This document shows positions 34,628-39,878 of a DNA stretch of 64,000 nt, piece after piece. The notes under the pieces are model-generated. The model was given only the letters and a program-made list of their open reading frames with translations, was not told the origin of the DNA and did not search any database. Within the stretch, counting starts at the first letter, position 1; each line of letters begins with the position of its first letter. Source of the stretch: Escherichia coli (GTDB lineage: Bacteria > Pseudomonadota > Gammaproteobacteria > Enterobacterales > Enterobacteriaceae); assembly GCF_003334305.1 (NCBI RefSeq), contig NZ_QOWS01000010.1, one strand, 5' to 3'. The translations under genes were made by a program, and so were the position numbers.

Positions 34628-35590
34628 TTATTGCACGAAGCGCGAGGTAACGTACTGGCTGTAATCATTCGCTACAGCCGGGACCTTGCCCTGCTCTTTC
34701 AAAAACTGCGCGGTGTCGATGATTGCTTTGTTCACCGGTCCGGTCAGTTCTGCCGTTTGTTGCTGCGGCGTCAGATAGGTATTTCCCTTCACCAGCCCCG
34801 GAACGTCACCTTCAGGCACGCCGCTTAAACGCGCCAGTTTGCTGATGTTTTCCGGCTGTTTCAGCCACGCGTCTGGGTTAGCAATGTACGGTTGCTGAGC
34901 ATCGATGGCGCTTTTAGCGAACGCTTTCACGACCTCAGGATGTTTCTCGGCAAAATCTTTGCGCACCACCCAGACGTCCAGCGTTGGCGCACCCCACTGC
35001 CCGACCTGTTCAGAATCGGTCAACACCTTGCCGTCTTTTTCCAGGGCGTTAACCGCCGGTGCCCAGACATAAGCACCATCAATATCTCCCCGCTGCCAGG
35101 CAGCGATAATCGCGGGCGGCTGCAGGTTCACAATCTCCACTTGCCCGGGTTTAATCCCCCAGTGTTTCAGCGCCGCCAGCAGGCTGTAGTGGGTGGTGGA
35201 GATAAACGGTACGGCGATGCGTTTGCCAATCAGATCTTCCGGTTTGCTGATAGTTTTCTTTACCACCAGCGCTTCGGAGTTACCCAGTTTTGACGCCAGC
35301 AAGAAGACTTCAATCGGCACCTGTTGGCTGGCTGCAACCGCTAATGGGCTGGAACCGAGGTTGCCGATTTGCACGTCGCCAGAAGCCAGCGCCCGCACGA
35401 TGCTGGCTCCGCTGTCAAACTTACGCCAGTCCACGGTTGCTCCGCTTTCTTTAGCAAAGGTGTTGTCGGCCTGAGCCACTTTCGCCGGTTCGGCTGAGGT
35501 TTGATACGCCACGGTGACGTTCACCGCCTGTGCCTGAAAAGCGATGAATGCCAGTGCGGCAAGAAGTGTGTTACGCGATGAAATTGCCAT
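34628..35590 (-). CDS. tauA: Taurine ABC transporter periplasmic binding protein
   Basis: 320 codons from ATG at 35588-35590 (MAISSRNTLLAALAFIAFQAQA signal peptide); GGGGAG-like SD upstream. Confidence 0.9.
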   Translation of the reverse strand: MAISSRNTLLAALAFIAFQAQAVNVTVAYQTSAEPAKVAQADNTFAKESGATVDWRKFDSGASIVRALASGDVQIGNLGSSPLAVAASQQVPIEVFLLASKLGNSEALVVKKTISKPEDLIGKRIAVPFISTTHYSLLAALKHWGIKPGQVEIVNLQPPAIIAAWQRGDIDGAYVWAPAVNALEKDGKVLTDSEQVGQWGAPTLDVWVVRKDFAEKHPEVVKAFAKSAIDAQQPYIANPDAWLKQPENISKLARLSGVPEGDVPGLVKGNTYLTPQQQTAELTGPVNKAIIDTAQFLKEQGKVPAVANDYSQYVTSRFVQ

Positions 35591-36205
35591 GATTGTCTGC
35601 TCCCCTGTCTTGTTATGTGAGCAGTATTCAGGAATAAAAACATTCATTAAAAGAATTAGTCGTTATCGCACAGATGATTTTATTCTTAGCAAAAAAACGG
35701 CAAAGGAAAGATTAAATATGCAATTACTCCGTTCTAACAATTGGGAAAATTACTACACTTCATTTTAGTGATGCATAAACAACCACATTACGAGATTTAT
35801 TACTTCATTATTTCTATCAATATCAATACATATAATAAAACTATTATATTCGCATTGTATATATCACTGTATCATTCTCAATCACTCGCATATTACATTC
35901 ACATAATGTATATAAACAATACTTGTTCACAGAACATATTTTTTAAATGCAATTAATTGACAAACTAAATCACATCTAAATACAATGTATAACACAAAAT
36001 AACTATACATACCAAACATACAAACACTTAACATATGAATTGCATAAAAACATTACCCAGTCGAACCTCCGGGTCTGAAAGCCCTTGCTTTTCAGTTATT
36101 AGCAACATTTAACATTTATAAATTAACATCTGGCTGCGCCAGAGATTACGTCTCTGAGTGCATCGTTGTGCTTGTAGTATAATAAATAAAATGGAGTGTC
36201 ATTAA

Positions 36206-36877
36206 GTGGATAAGGTTTTAGATTCAGCCCTCCTTTCTTCGGCAAATAAAAGAAAGGGTATCCTTGCTATTGGCGCACATCCTGACGATATAGAATTAGG
36301 CTGTGGCGCATCGCTTGCTCGTCTTGCGCAAAAAGGAATTTATATCGCAGCCGTGGTGATGACTACCGGCAACTCTGGTACAGATGGAATAATCGATCGC
36401 CATGAAGAATCGCGCAACGCCCTAAAGATATTAGGGTGCCACCAAACTATTCATCTTAATTTTGCTGACACCCGCGCTCATTTACAGCTCAATGATATGA
36501 TTTCCGCTCTGGAAGACATCATTAAAAATCAAATTCCTTCTGATGTTGAAATCATGCGGGTATATACCATGCATGATGCCGACCGCCATCAGGATCATCT
36601 CGCTGTTTATCAAGCTTCAATGGTTGCCTGCCGCACTATTCCACAAATTCTCGGCTACGAAACCCCAAGTACCTGGCTTTCATTTATGCCTCAGGTTTTT
36701 GAATCCGTTAAAGAAGAATATTTCACAGTCAAACTTGCTGCATTAAAAAAACATAAAAGCCAGGAACGACGCGATTATATGCGTCATGATCGCCTGCGTG
36801 CAGTTGCACAATTTCGCGGGCAACAGGTCAATAGCGATCTGGGTGAAGGCTTTGTAATTCATAAAATGATTCTTTGA
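36206..36877 (+). CDS. yaiS: PIG-L/LmbE family N-acetylglucosaminyl deacetylase-like protein YaiS
   Basis: 223 codons from GTG 36206 (GGAG 9 nt upstream); AHPDD motif near N-terminus and HQDH motif typical of LmbE-like zinc deacetylases. Confidence 0.8.
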   Translation: MDKVLDSALLSSANKRKGILAIGAHPDDIELGCGASLARLAQKGIYIAAVVMTTGNSGTDGIIDRHEESRNALKILGCHQTIHLNFADTRAHLQLNDMISALEDIIKNQIPSDVEIMRVYTMHDADRHQDHLAVYQASMVACRTIPQILGYETPSTWLSFMPQVFESVKEEYFTVKLAALKKHKSQERRDYMRHDRLRAVAQFRGQQVNSDLGEGFVIHKMIL

Positions 36878-36886
36878 GCAAATTGC

Positions 36887-38083
36887 ATGAAAACCTGGAT
36901 ATTTATCTGTATGTCCATAGCAATGTTGCTATGGTTTTTAAGTACGCTAAGACGTAAACCCAGTCAAAAGAAAGGCTGTATTGACGCCATTATACCTGCG
37001 TATAACGAAGGCCCGTGTCTGGCGCAGTCACTGGATAATCTACTGCGTAACCCTTATTTTTGCCGGGTAATTTGCGTTAACGACGGCTCCACGGACAATA
37101 CCGAAGCGGTCATGGCGGAAGTCAAACGCAAATGGGGCGACCGCTTTGTTGCCGTCACGCAAAAAAATACCGGTAAAGGTGGTGCGCTGATGAATGGCCT
37201 CAATTATGCCACCTGCGACCAGGTTTTTTTAAGTGATGCCGACACCTATGTTCCGCCCGATCAAGACGGAATGGGCTATATGCTGGCAGAAATTGAGCGC
37301 GGTGCTGATGCCGTAGGCGGCATTCCCTCTACTGCGTTGAAAGGCGCGGGGCTGTTACCGCACATCCGCGCGACCGTAAAGTTGCCGATGATTGTTATGA
37401 AGCGCACGCTACAGCAGCTCCTGGGCGGCGCACCGTTTATTATCAGCGGTGCCTGCGGAATGTTCCGCACTGATGTATTGCGTAAGTTCGGTTTCTCAGA
37501 TCGTACTAAAGTCGAAGACCTTGATCTCACCTGGACATTAGTGGCAAACGGCTACCGTATTCGGCAGGCGAATCGCTGCATCGTATACCCACAGGAATGC
37601 AACAGCCCGCGTGAGGAGTGGCGTCGCTGGCGGCGTTGGATTGTGGGATACGCGGTCTGTATGCGCCTGCATAAAAGACTTTTATTTAGCCGCTTCGGTA
37701 TCTTCAGTATATTTCCTATGCTGTTGGTTGTGATTTATGGCGTTGGGATTTATCTCACTACCTGGTTTAATGAATTCATCACCACCGGGCCGCATGGTGT
37801 GGTGTTGGCAATGTTTCCGCTTATCTGGATCGGCGTAGTTTGTGTTATTGGTGCTTTTAGCGCCTGGTTTCATCGTTGCTGGTTGTTGGTGCCTTTAGCG
37901 CCGCTTTCCGTTGTGTATGTATTATTAGCTTATGCCATCTGGATTATTTATGGACTTATTGCCTTTTTTACTGGACGCGAACCTCAGCGCGACAAACCCA
38001 CCCGCTATTCCGCACTGGTGGAAGCGTCAACCGCTTATTCCCAACCTTCTGTCACAGGAACTGAAAAACTATCTGAAGCTTAA
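36887..38083 (+). CDS. yaiP: Membrane-anchored family 2 glycosyltransferase YaiP
   Basis: 398-aa ORF; N-terminal TM helix, GT2 core (IIPAYNEG, DAD), RRWRRW motif, several C-terminal hydrophobic helices. Confidence 0.85.
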   Translation: MKTWIFICMSIAMLLWFLSTLRRKPSQKKGCIDAIIPAYNEGPCLAQSLDNLLRNPYFCRVICVNDGSTDNTEAVMAEVKRKWGDRFVAVTQKNTGKGGALMNGLNYATCDQVFLSDADTYVPPDQDGMGYMLAEIERGADAVGGIPSTALKGAGLLPHIRATVKLPMIVMKRTLQQLLGGAPFIISGACGMFRTDVLRKFGFSDRTKVEDLDLTWTLVANGYRIRQANRCIVYPQECNSPREEWRRWRRWIVGYAVCMRLHKRLLFSRFGIFSIFPMLLVVIYGVGIYLTTWFNEFITTGPHGVVLAMFPLIWIGVVCVIGAFSAWFHRCWLLVPLAPLSVVYVLLAYAIWIIYGLIAFFTGREPQRDKPTRYSALVEASTAYSQPSVTGTEKLSEA

Positions 38084-38642
38084 TGTTAAAGAGAAAAATA
38101 TTCAGATTGCAGACCAGGTAATTATTGATGAAACTGCAGGTGAAGTTGTTATCGGCGCGAATACCCGTATTTGTCATGGTGCCGTTATTCAGGGTCCGGT
38201 AGTAATTGGCGCAAACTGCCTGATAGGTAATTATGCGTTTATTCGTCCTGGCACAATAATCAGCAATGGTGTAAAAATTGGTTTTGCCACCGAAATTAAA
38301 AATGCGGTTATTGAAGCGGAAGCAACGATTGGTCCGCAATGTTTTATTGCCGACTCGGTAGTTGCAAACCAGGCATATTTGGGCGCACAAGTACGTACCA
38401 GTAATCATCGTCTGGATGAACAGCCTGTGTCTGTTCGAACTCCAGAGGGAATTATCGCTACCGGATGCGATAAATTAGGTTGTTATATCGGGCAGCGTTC
38501 ACGCCTTGGCGTACAAGTTATAATTTTGCCTGGGCGAATTATTTCCCCGAACACGCAACTTGGCCCGCGCGTGATTGTAGAACGTAATTTACCTGCCGGA
38601 ACTTATTCACTCCGACAAGAACTTATCCGTACAGGAGATTAA
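37932..38642 (+). CDS. yaiX: Hexapeptide-repeat (left-handed beta-helix) acyl/acetyltransferase YaiX; start uncertain
   Basis: Repeated [LIV]GxxxxI hexapeptides (IGANTRICHGAVIQGPVVIGANCLIGNYAFIRPG...); frame overlaps yaiP 3' end by 152 nt and no ATG/GTG/TTG lies in frame downstream of the yaiP stop. Confidence 0.65.
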   Translation: MPSGLFMDLLPFLLDANLSATNPPAIPHWWKRQPLIPNLLSQELKNYLKLNVKEKNIQIADQVIIDETAGEVVIGANTRICHGAVIQGPVVIGANCLIGNYAFIRPGTIISNGVKIGFATEIKNAVIEAEATIGPQCFIADSVVANQAYLGAQVRTSNHRLDEQPVSVRTPEGIIATGCDKLGCYIGQRSRLGVQVIILPGRIISPNTQLGPRVIVERNLPAGTYSLRQELIRTGD

Positions 38643-38643
38643 A

Positions 38644-39417
38644 ATGATAAAACGGACGTTATTAGCGGCGGCCATTTTTAGCGCATTGCCCGCTTATGCC
38701 GGGTTAACTTCCATTACCGCGGGCTACGATTTTACCGATTATTCTGGCGATCATGGCAACCGTAATTTAGCGTATGCTGAACTGGTGGCGAAAGTTGAAA
38801 ACGCAACGCTGCTTTTTAATCTTTCCCAGGGGCGTCGTGATTATGAAACTGAACATTTCAATGCCACTCGCGGTCAGGGTGCGGTCTGGTATAAATGGAA
38901 TAACTGGCTGACAACCCGAACGGGTATTGCCTTTGCGGATAATACGCCGGTCTTTGCCCGCCAGGATTTTCGTCAGGATATTAACCTGGCCCTGTTGCCA
39001 AAAACGCTTTTCACGACCGGTTATCGCTACACTAAATATTACGATGATGTCGAAGTCGATGCCTGGCAAGGCGGCGTATCACTCTATACTGGCCCGGTGA
39101 TCACCAGCTACCGCTATACCCATTATGACTCCAGCGATGCAGGTGGTAGTTATAGCAATATGATTTCCGTGCGTCTGAATGACCCGCGCGGCACTGGTTA
39201 TACGCAACTATGGCTAAGCCGCGGAACAGGCGCTTACACCTATGACTGGACGCCAGAAACACGCTACGGCAGCATGAAGAGCGTCAGTCTGCAACGTATT
39301 CAACCGCTGACTGAGCAACTTAATCTCGGGCTGACGGCAGGTAAAGTGTGGTACGACACCCCAACCGATGATTATAACGGTCTGCAACTTGCAGCCCATC
39401 TGACCTGGAAATTCTGA
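38644..39417 (+). CDS. yaiO: Outer-membrane beta-barrel protein YaiO
   Basis: 257-aa ORF, signal peptide (…ALPAYA|G), alternating amphipathic strands, C-terminal …LTWKF; AGGAG SD; ATG one nt after yaiX stop. Confidence 0.88.
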   Translation: MIKRTLLAAAIFSALPAYAGLTSITAGYDFTDYSGDHGNRNLAYAELVAKVENATLLFNLSQGRRDYETEHFNATRGQGAVWYKWNNWLTTRTGIAFADNTPVFARQDFRQDINLALLPKTLFTTGYRYTKYYDDVEVDAWQGGVSLYTGPVITSYRYTHYDSSDAGGSYSNMISVRLNDPRGTGYTQLWLSRGTGAYTYDWTPETRYGSMKSVSLQRIQPLTEQLNLGLTAGKVWYDTPTDDYNGLQLAAHLTWKF

Positions 39418-39526
39418 TTCCTTCTGCCGCCCGCTATCCGGGGCGGCCTTCCCTGCCGATTAGCCCCCCCCTTTCCTCTTTGTTTTCCGACCACATTCAC
39501 CGGATAAATTTTATTCTCCAGTGTTA

Positions 39527-39577
39527 TATACTATAGGGGGGTATGCATTGACATATAGCATACCCCCCTATAGTATA
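39527..39577 (+). promoter_or_regulatory. frmRAB promoter embedded in FrmR operator palindrome
   Basis: Perfect 20-bp inverted repeat TATACTATAGGGGGGTATGC / GCATACCCCCCTATAGTATA around an 11-bp spacer containing TTGACA (39548-39553); TAGTAT -10 candidate 17 bp downstream. Confidence 0.7.
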
Positions 39578-39602
39578 TTGTGTGCAGATAATGAGGTGCG
39601 AA

Positions 39603-39878
39603 ATGCCCAGTACTCCGGAAGAGAAGAAAAAGGTCCTTACTCGAGTTCGTCGTATTCGAGGGCAGATTGATGCTCTGGAACGGTCGCTGGAGGGTGATGC
39701 CGAATGCCGTGCCATACTCCAACAGATCGCTGCCGTTCGGGGCGCGGCTAATGGGCTGATGGCAGAAGTGCTTGAAAGCCATATCCGGGAAACGTTTGAC
39801 CGAAATGACTGCTACAGCCGCGAAGTCAGCCAATCCGTTGACGACACTATTGAACTGGTTCGAGCCTATCTTAAATAG
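39603..39878 (+). CDS. frmR: Formaldehyde-responsive repressor FrmR (RcnR/CsoR family)
   Basis: 91 codons from ATG 39603 ([30 protein letters not shown]...). Confidence 0.9.

Follow-up and report, generated by a model that had tools for sequence, protein, structure and literature searches.

In the synthase-dependent systems that make poly-N-acetylglucosamine (PNAG) and cellulose, the deacetylase and the acyl- or phosphoethanolamine transferases modify the polymer outside the cytoplasm and have CE4 and MBOAT/SGNH folds. A tetratricopeptide repeat (TPR) scaffold accompanies the outer-membrane barrel of these systems, and a receptor for cyclic di-GMP (c-di-GMP) gates synthesis. In other pathways a sugar is transferred, de-N-acetylated and re-acylated; these include NodC/NodB/NodA, LpxA/LpxC/LpxD and the teicoplanin enzymes GtfA/Orf2*/Orf11*, as well as TunD/TunE/TunC of tunicamycin and MshA/MshB/MshC-D of mycothiol biosynthesis. 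Here we analyze the genes yaiS, yaiP, yaiX and yaiO in a 64,000-nucleotide stretch of Escherichia coli DNA (contig NZ_QOWS01000010.1 of assembly GCF_003334305.1), which is referred to below as the window. A preliminary description made from the sequence had regarded the four genes as an intact operon with the parts of a PNAG- or cellulose-type system. They form a real, selected, self-contained and mobile glycan cassette, and we lean, with moderate confidence, towards reading it as a minimal synthase-dependent pathway with editing of the N-substituent in the cytoplasm.

The chromosomal order in the window is tauDCBA on the minus strand, an AT-rich spacer, yaiS-yaiP-yaiX-yaiO on the plus strand, and frmR-frmA-frmB. 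Analysis of open reading frames (ORFs) agreed with the preliminary description on the coordinates and near-zero spacing of the four same-strand genes (Table 1): yaiS and yaiP are 9 nt apart, yaiP and yaiX overlap, and 1 nt separates yaiX from yaiO, whose ATG does follow an AGGAG Shine-Dalgarno (SD) sequence. The hexamers of the sigma-70 promoter upstream of yaiS are identical to those given as the constitutive RpoD-holoenzyme promoter of this gene in a genomic SELEX study (PMC3946193). Because the genes are tightly spaced or overlapping and are preceded by one strong promoter, the proposed single transcription unit is supported, and promoter-like and terminator-like sites within the operon showed no excess over shuffled sequence. 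An 8-bp hairpin followed by TTTTT (36915-36934), which falls in the opening codons of yaiP, is present in Escherichia and in part in Citrobacter. It was considered as an attenuator or operon-splitting terminator and rejected, since it is not conserved in the Citrobacter, Superficieibacter or plasmid orthologues; for the same reason, it probably arises from the codons for the transmembrane helix.

Table 1. Coordinates in the window of the four genes and of their control region
Feature	Position	Strand	Description
yaiS	36206-36877	+	GTG start, 223 aa; GGAG 8 nt 5' of GTG
yaiP	36887-38083	+	398 aa
yaiX	37950-38642	+	favored ATG start at 37950; stop codon 38640-38642
yaiO	38644-39417	+	257 aa; SD AGGAG at 38633-38637
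Divergent tauA/yaiS control region	35650-36205		AT-rich by composition profile; probable H-NS target
Sigma-70 promoter TTGACA-18-TACAAT	35957-35986	+	11/12 consensus match, ~220 nt 5' of yaiS

To examine conservation, loci were collected from contigs with distant YaiO or YaiP homologues, a profile-guided scan of one genome per species, a plasmid search and a second E. coli island. In tblastn searches with the four proteins, the genes for the PIG-L, GT2 (glycosyltransferase family 2), LbH (left-handed beta-helix) and YaiO proteins were found in the same order and orientation in all 30 loci, so that the synteny survey proposed earlier upheld the block. In three loci added after the 30, namely two on plasmids and the second E. 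coli island, the annotation likewise lists these four genes in this order. The flanking genes change from locus to locus, and no fifth gene accompanies the cassette across the 30. This four-gene arrangement is far beyond chance. The sources were Escherichia, Citrobacter (C. braakii has two copies), Salmonella, Superficieibacter and Ignatzschineria; further loci came from Stenotrophomonas, Lysobacter, Pseudoxanthomonas, Acinetobacter, Pseudomonas viridiflava, alphaproteobacterial and Sphingomonadaceae metagenome-assembled genomes, and IncF conjugative plasmids. In distant genera, YaiP retains 52-69% identity, and YaiO falls to 26-37% in the most distant loci. All four genes had dN/dS values of 0.03-0.13 when compared with E. 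whittamii and two Citrobacter orthologues, and the cassette is thus under purifying selection.

At least 80% of the operon is present in 4810 of 5426 complete E. coli genomes (89%). Among 60 evenly spaced records, an insertion split the operon only in the four K-12 derivatives; a first sample had contained IS1 and IS3 insertions in non-K-12 strains and one deletion in a BL21 derivative. Across species the distribution is sparse and patchy, with matches in 17 of ~100,000 species representatives. This patchy spread, the plasmid copies, the integrase, ccdAB and insertion sequence (IS) neighbors and the low G+C content together indicate a mobile cassette. In O157:H7 (ECP19-598) the operon is absent, and an island with uhpC-like and ferric ABC transporter genes abuts frmR; similar transporter genes lie 3' of the cassette in C. 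braakii. The site is therefore a hotspot of variable content.

Several individual copies of the cassette were recorded in addition. It is complete on 49 PLSDB records, of which a few are the size of chromosomes but most are true plasmids, with a conjugative typing for 33. The two plasmid loci are NZ_AP024124.1 and NZ_CP116045.1; on an IncF plasmid from cattle the cassette lies a few kb from cnf2 (cytotoxic necrotizing factor 2), and on a plasmid of Shiga toxin-producing E. coli it adjoins ccdAB and an integrase gene. In some E. coli, of which NZ_CP124495.1 is an example, a divergent copy (~91% nucleotide identity) occupies another chromosomal island, where its neighbors are IbrB-like and PAPS-reductase (ibrAB-like) genes and what is left of an IS66 element. 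The surroundings of the Salmonella copy are comparable, with an ibrA-like gene, and also include a PapB-type regulator, a YadA-like adhesin and ccdAB.

The sequence motifs quoted in the preliminary description are all present in the four proteins, and domain and profile searches recovered each of the four folds (PIG-L, GT2, Hexapep/LbH and TIGR04390). YaiS belongs to the PIG-L family (PF02585, 6e-25), as had been assigned, and its residues 19-221 are covered by the BshB1 profile. The motifs AHPDD (residues 24-28) and HQDH (128-131) are present, and AHPDD and DRHQDH, which match the zinc-binding and catalytic residues known for LmbE enzymes, are invariant among orthologues. Among proteins of solved structure, the archaeal diacetylchitobiose deacetylase is the best relative and aligns from end to end; the closest solved relatives (this enzyme and BshB) all remove an N-acetyl group from a GlcNAc (N-acetylglucosamine) residue in the cytoplasm. 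The thiol-pathway deacetylase equivalogs BshB1, MshB and Mca were rejected as identities for YaiS, which scored 80, 27, 21 and 20 bits, below every curated cut-off (182-277). A sequence scan found no signal peptide and no hydrophobic segment. Because there is no such segment and several orthologues begin directly at the catalytic motif, YaiS is predicted to be a cytoplasmic, Zn-dependent de-N-acetylase of the LmbE/PIG-L type, full length in the window.

The annotation of yaiS is irregular. RefSeq/PGAP calls the gene of strain A7 a 411-nt 'incomplete' pseudogene, and its sequence is identical to the intact 223-codon ORF of the window; in many genomes, the sole annotation over the 3' end is a 'hypothetical protein' on the minus strand. 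This looks like an artefact, possibly propagated from the truncated K-12 protein. The 39-codon ykiC (36743-36862, minus strand) is intact in the window, differs from K-12 by S15P, and is wholly antisense to the intact 3' end of yaiS. Its product has been seen as a small protein in K-12 by epitope tagging (PMC6001520).

YaiP matched the GT2 families PF00535, PF13641 and PF13632 in Pfam, and GT21 at 1e-7. The AlphaFold2 model (pLDDT 81) has an N-terminal transmembrane helix, a GT-A domain, an amphipathic helix carrying WRRWRRW and three long hydrophobic helices, in agreement with the layout described previously and with the hydrophobic helices of the sequence (one N-terminal and three C-terminal). 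Searches of the PDB by sequence, with a single sequence or a profile, gave matches confined to the generic N-terminal GT-A half of the protein, and fold searches were therefore needed. In fold comparisons the model scored 26.8 over 340 residues with the Chlorella virus hyaluronan synthase (HAS), 25.7 over 328 with Xenopus HAS1, 25.1 over 337 with BcsA and 23.7 over 297 with PcManGT; GtrB, ArnC and DPMS gave 15.3-15.9 over about 195 residues, the GT-A domain only. Foldseek TM-scores were 0.57-0.64 to hyaluronan synthases versus 0.35-0.40 to GtrB, ArnC and DPMS. A polyprenyl-phosphate GT2 transferase of the ArnC/GtrB/DPMS kind was considered and rejected, as the similarity did not extend to the whole chain.

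By BLASTP, YaiP and E. coli PgaC are 29% identical over 241 residues (2e-19), within the glycosyltransferase domain only, and the paired motifs are VNDGSTD/VNDGSTD, DGD/DAD (117-119 in YaiP), TEDID/VEDLD and QRLRW/RWRRW. Because PgaC QRLRW aligns with RWRRW, the YaiP segment RRWRRW (246-251) corresponds to the QxxRW motif with Gln replaced by Arg247; the resemblance noticed earlier is one of position, and the Gln itself is lost. The fold and three motifs (D, DxD and (T)ED) fit a synthase, with R247 as the deviation. These catalytic motifs, including the Arg247 variant, are invariant in 32 orthologues, as is a C-terminal TG.EP.RDKP.RY tail that has no counterpart in the relatives compared. The best NCBIfam match was PgaC_IcaA (TIGR03937), with 100.9 bits against a cut-off of 422.3, and NodC (TIGR04242) matched the N-terminal region only, with 29.3 bits (cut-off 550). 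With both scores below the curated cut-offs, YaiP was rejected as an orthologue of PgaC or NodC. The model and motifs support YaiP as a putative inner-membrane GT2 protein of the processive membrane-synthase fold.

YaiX matched Hexapep and LbH families, its best Pfam matches being LbH_EIF2B, LbH_GLGC and GMPPB_C; it scored 129 bits with TIGR03992 and 44 bits with LpxD. Its alignment with the C-terminal domain of Sulfolobus ST0452 is ungapped over 158 residues (8e-23). No signal peptide and no membrane or hydrophobic segment was found in a sequence scan. YaiX is thus predicted to be a stand-alone, cytoplasmic left-handed beta-helix of the archaeal-GlmU C-terminal type. In GlmU, R333, K351, K392 and N386 are ligands of the phosphate and sugar of glucosamine-1-phosphate, His363 is the general base, and Tyr366 and Asn377 contact the sugar. 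When seven YaiX orthologues were aligned with ST0452 and E. coli GlmU, the first four residues corresponded to R105, K123, K181 and N158 of YaiX, which are conserved and invariant. In contrast, His363 (His308 in ST0452) is replaced by Pro135 in all seven orthologues, Tyr366 by Phe138 (Phe in six, Tyr in one) and Asn377 by an invariant Tyr149. Tyr387, beside N386, corresponds to an invariant His159, which lies within an 11-residue motif, AQVRTSNHRLD, invariant across the family. The earlier assignment of a hexapeptide, GlmU-like acyltransferase therefore stands for the fold, the ST0452 relationship and the ligands, and fails at the catalytic His. Because the phosphate ligands are kept, the GlmU general base is lost and His159 is invariant, YaiX may be an acyltransferase whose base has moved to another position, or else a sugar-phosphate-binding subunit without catalytic activity.

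The start of yaiX is uncertain. The frame is open from an ATG at 37932, which would give a 236-aa form and is confined to Escherichia, to the stop codon. The ATG at 37950 (MDLLPFLLD; 134-nt overlap with yaiP) is the sole start conserved in all enteric orthologues and is the best conserved candidate. RefSeq starts yaiX at CTG 38061, which is unlikely, since it cuts off a conserved WW segment. Non-enteric orthologues start with 'MWW' at a point 14 nt ahead of the yaiP stop codon; in E. coli the codon at the MWW start is CAC and yaiP is ~20 codons longer than in non-enterics. In every lineage yaiX is translationally entangled with the 3' end of yaiP, and no SD sequence is present 5' of yaiX (PMC13058169). 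In the same region, loss of one A from an A5 run (38064-38068) near the yaiP stop yields a YaiP-YaiX fusion ORF, seen as cluster P0111 (481 aa, 15 members, read-archive assemblies). A T6 run (37964-37969) inside the yaiP/yaiX overlap is kept in enteric orthologues. These runs may represent real variants, frameshift sites or homopolymer sequencing errors.

YaiO is the name-giving member of TIGR04390/PF19413 and scored 184.3 bits against a cut-off of 32. It has a signal peptide (residues 1-19), a C-terminus ending in ...TWKF and an AlphaFold2 model (pLDDT 90) with 14 strands, all in line with the outer-membrane barrel expected. In fold comparisons, 14-stranded monomeric channels ranked on top and exopolysaccharide porins lower: CymA 20.5, Omp33 19.5, OmpG 18.6, FadL 18.6, PelB 14.6, BcsC 13.7 and PgaA 11.7. 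No sequence similarity to PgaA was found. Relatives fused to TPR were sought by phmmer over 1.84 billion representatives and by a profile search, and none with TPR was recovered. All full-length relatives are stand-alone proteins of ~255-290 aa; a few matches far exceed this length, and these either align weakly in several stretches or look like chimeras. From the model, YaiO is predicted to be a bare 14-stranded beta-barrel of the outer membrane.

The K-12 genes differ from those of the window. As had been stated, yaiX of K-12 is interrupted by IS2. A second lesion changes yaiS codon 186 from CAG to TAG (position 36761, where the window keeps the Gln codon), leaving a YaiS of 185 aa that breaks off at the Q of a conserved HxSQ motif; the 38 residues lost include this invariant Q, an Arg, a Tyr, FRGxQ and ExF. 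In searches with an exact 61-mer, the TAG form was present in 355 of the 5426 complete genomes and the CAG form in 2213, and sampled exact TAG matches were nearly all laboratory K-12 derivatives. Strains carrying supE44/glnV44 would insert Gln at this codon, restoring the exact wild-type YaiS. The preliminary description had explained the lack of laboratory phenotypes by IS2; the insertion is there, but the yaiS amber had been missed, and repair of yaiX is reported to give clumping. EcoGene 3.0 relates that mending the yaiX' pseudogene of K-12 'facilitates clumping' of vegetatively growing cells and that this requires YaiP, described there as a product of the yaiX operon; its source is a 2011 meeting abstract (PMC3531124). 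In view of this report, the operon is not wholly unstudied. A 2026 paper describes altered drug tolerance upon plasmid overexpression of a 71-aa K-12 YaiX fragment and does not consider the operon (PMC13058169); it concerns the K-12 fragment only and was not used as evidence on native YaiX function. In addition, yaiO is in use as an E. coli-specific PCR marker (PMC4453288). No paper assigning a product was found in the searchable literature, as the preliminary description had supposed, and a role in anti-phage defence was dropped, since PADLOC gave no match for any of the four proteins.

The tauA/yaiS spacer has a G+C content of 30-32% versus 55-60% in its flanks and carries an 'HNS' flag in the genomic SELEX table (PMC3946193). 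The tauA promoter (TTGAGA-16-TACAAT, 35854-35881, minus strand) lies in this spacer back to back with the yaiS promoter, and its hexamers agree with those listed for tauABCD (PMC3946193). An Rfam scan of 35500-39700 found no family in the ~220-nt yaiS leader, and a riboswitch or other RNA element was rejected; the scan gave only chance miRNA matches to a palindrome at the frmR promoter. This palindrome region contains a perfect 21-nt inverted repeat (ATATACTATAGGGGGGTATGC; 39526-39546 and 39558-39578), which overlaps the frmR promoter (TTGACA at 39548) and probably serves the RcnR/CsoR-family repressor FrmR as its G-tract operator.

The reading that we favor, and judge reasonably probable, is that the four genes form one self-contained mobile pathway for a glycan based on GlcNAc or glucosamine (GlcN), which is carried across both membranes. 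YaiP would be a stand-alone inner-membrane synthase of HAS/BcsA/PgaC architecture. It would polymerize an N-acyl-hexosamine activated with UDP, most likely UDP-GlcNAc or a compound derived from it, and the growing chain would pass through the transmembrane portion of YaiP itself. YaiO would serve as the dedicated outer-membrane conduit, as a monomeric, 14-stranded barrel of the sugar-channel type. Since YaiS and YaiX lack a signal peptide and membrane segment, they must act on a substrate exposed to the cytoplasm, and the presence of two cytoplasmic proteins for GlcNAc/GlcN-phosphate-type substrates suggests that the N-substituent is edited before or at polymerization. They might remove the acetyl group and then possibly re-acylate the hexosamine on an activated donor, a primer or the cytoplasm-exposed end of the product, and not on the exported polymer. 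The surface product would make cells stick together, and H-NS bound at the AT-rich promoter region may normally hold expression down. A bolder form of this proposal, which we consider doubtful, is that the locus represents a minimal system that would count as the fifth class of synthase-dependent glycan secretion in Gram-negative bacteria, with a stand-alone HAS-like synthase, a 14-stranded porin, cytoplasmic removal or exchange of N-acetyl groups, a YaiX activity based on His159, and a new N-modified poly- or oligo-glucosamine adhesin as its product.

Several points weigh against the favored pathway. The Gln of QxxRW is Arg in YaiP, which also has the GT21 match (1e-7), and an Arg variant of this motif occurs in non-polymerizing GT21 lipid glycosyltransferases such as glucosylceramide synthase. 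PcManGT has the same fold as YaiP, whose processivity is putative. A cytoplasmic deacetylase cannot reach a co-translocated polymer, so the step of YaiS and YaiX is unassigned; without the GlmU catalytic His, YaiX may not be an acyltransferase. No periplasmic component stands between YaiP and YaiO. As clumping arose in K-12 with the yaiS amber, YaiS may be dispensable for it. Finally, no product has ever been isolated, and the clumping is known via a meeting abstract quoted in a database paper (PMC3531124).

Alternatively, YaiP might make a short GlcNAc oligosaccharide released inside the cell, which YaiS deacetylates at its non-reducing end and YaiX re-acylates before exit through YaiO; the result would be an oligomer or signal molecule, a small (lipo)oligosaccharide and not an exopolysaccharide. 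A GT2 protein with a cytoplasmic deacetylase and an acyltransferase follows the established logic of NodC/NodB/NodA, and NodB, like the archaeal diacetylchitobiose deacetylase, deacetylates the non-reducing terminal GlcNAc. The best solved YaiS relative likewise acts on the non-reducing GlcNAc of chitobiose, YaiS and YaiX are both cytoplasmic, and the helix layout of YaiP is minimal (1+3). However, YaiP scored 29 bits against the NodC equivalog cut-off of 550, the 30 cassette loci contain no NodIJ-type inner-membrane exporter, YaiX is not NodA-like and has no obvious catalytic base, and a polymer explains clumping more easily, so that we regard an oligomer of this kind as unlikely. A narrower departure keeps the synthase and the porin and leaves YaiS as the sole tailoring activity, with YaiX as a scaffold, regulator or substrate-binding partner of YaiP, for which the LbH domains of GlgC, GMPPA and eIF2B are models. 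The replacement of His363 by an invariant Pro, of Tyr366 by Phe in six of seven orthologues and of Asn377 by an invariant Tyr, as well as best Pfam matches to the non-catalytic LbH_EIF2B, LbH_GLGC and GMPPB_C, would suit such a role, as would the entanglement of yaiX with the yaiP 3' end in every lineage and the fusion ORF in some assemblies (P0111). We nonetheless think it distinctly unlikely: the invariant AQVRTSNHRLD with His159, together with R105, K123, K181 and N158, resembles a conserved active or binding site, and the closest characterized relative, the ST0452 C-terminal domain, is catalytic.

It is also conceivable that YaiP places a single GlcNAc on undecaprenyl phosphate or another lipid, that YaiS deacetylates it at the inner leaflet and YaiX modifies the amine, and that the lipid-linked aminosugar finally decorates an envelope molecule. 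A GT2 step followed by a cytoplasmic deacylase is established logic (ArnC/ArnD, LgmA/LgmC, FlmF2/NaxD), ArnC, GtrB and DPMS are detectable as sequence and fold relatives of YaiP, the anomeric-phosphate ligands are kept in YaiX, and the RxxRW variant and GT21 match point the same way. This route would leave the strictly linked outer-membrane barrel without a role, and neither a flippase nor a GT-C transferase is in the cassette at any of the 30 loci; it appears very improbable. Least credible, and close to negligible in our view, is a cryptic, decaying islet that is functionless in present E. coli. Low G+C content, the AT-rich promoter region flagged for H-NS, IS insertions in several lineages (IS2 in K-12, IS1 and IS3 in others), the lack of the operon in O157:H7 and a yaiX without SD sequence could all be taken as signs of decay, but the selection and distribution data contradict it: dN/dS is 0.03-0.13, the operon is found in 89% of complete genomes with only K-12 derivatives interrupted (4 of 60), and the block is kept on conjugative plasmids and in distant genera. 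Moreover, the repaired operon gives a phenotype, as far as the database entry relates (PMC3531124).

Because K-12 is doubly mutant, with IS2 in yaiX and the yaiS amber, a whole surface-glycan pathway of E. coli may have escaped K-12 genetics. The cassette is present in most E. coli, on IncF plasmids (one beside cnf2) and, sporadically, in opportunists that include Stenotrophomonas, Acinetobacter and Citrobacter. A defined product would add a determinant of aggregation or biofilm formation to E. coli surface biology, would show how glycan export can work with just a synthase and a small porin, and would reveal the role of a GlmU-type beta-helix after loss of its catalytic histidine. If the product were indeed a new, N-modified glucosamine polymer, it would be an adhesin that most E. 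coli produce and whose genes also travel on conjugative virulence plasmids. The distribution also has practical relevance for the yaiO PCR marker, which is absent in O157:H7, so that such strains would be missed, and present in Citrobacter and on plasmids.

Compared with known systems, the cassette resembles the pathways that glycosylate, de-N-acetylate and re-acylate, in that a putative GlcNAc transferase is encoded together with a candidate acyltransferase and with a metal-dependent de-N-acetylase of the cytoplasm, which is LmbE-type in several of these pathways; LpxD, an N-acyltransferase, is an LbH protein like YaiX. This would be a resemblance and not membership, since the Nod, Lpx, teicoplanin, tunicamycin and mycothiol pathways have no orthologous component, make small molecules or lipid A and possess no dedicated outer-membrane barrel. 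YaiX shares with ST0452 and the GlmU C-terminal domain the ungapped 158-residue alignment and the equivalents of R333, K351, K392 and N386. It differs from them in standing alone without a nucleotidyltransferase domain, in the change of His363 to Pro135 and in the new His159 of SNHRLD. YaiO has 7-8% identity with CymA and OmpG, which are uptake channels in catabolic operons, whereas YaiO forms its own family, TIGR04390/PF19413, and is strictly linked to a biosynthetic cassette.

YaiP has the GT-A core, interface helices and transmembrane helices of HAS, BcsA, PgaC, NodC and chitin synthase, and, like the class I HAS of Chlorella virus and Xenopus, no obligatory co-polymerase is encoded alongside it. 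Unlike HAS and PgaC, with which it shares 14-16% and 29% identity, respectively, it falls below every NCBIfam equivalog cut-off, has Arg for the QxxRW Gln, only 1+3 helices and the TG.EP.RDKP.RY tail, and its processivity is putative. The proposed mirror of PNAG and cellulose systems accordingly holds for the GT2 membrane synthase and the outer-membrane barrel and not for the remaining parts. YaiS is a predicted cytoplasmic LmbE protein, unlike the periplasmic CE4 deacetylase of PgaB and PelA; YaiX, likewise cytoplasmic and without the GlmU His, is an LbH protein, of which Pga, Bcs, Alg and Pel have none. YaiO has 14 strands in 257 aa and no TPR, in contrast to the 16-18 strands and periplasmic TPR scaffold of PgaA, BcsC, AlgK-AlgE and PelB. 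No c-di-GMP receptor of the PilZ, PgaD, Alg44 or PelD-like kind was found in the four-gene cassette, in which YaiP has GT2 Pfam domains only and ends at residue 398. What the locus has in common with Pga, Bcs, Alg and Pel is an inner-membrane synthase and a dedicated outer-membrane barrel in one operon, and with PgaABCD, in particular, it would share a hexosamine chemistry that includes de-N-acetylation and an aggregation phenotype.

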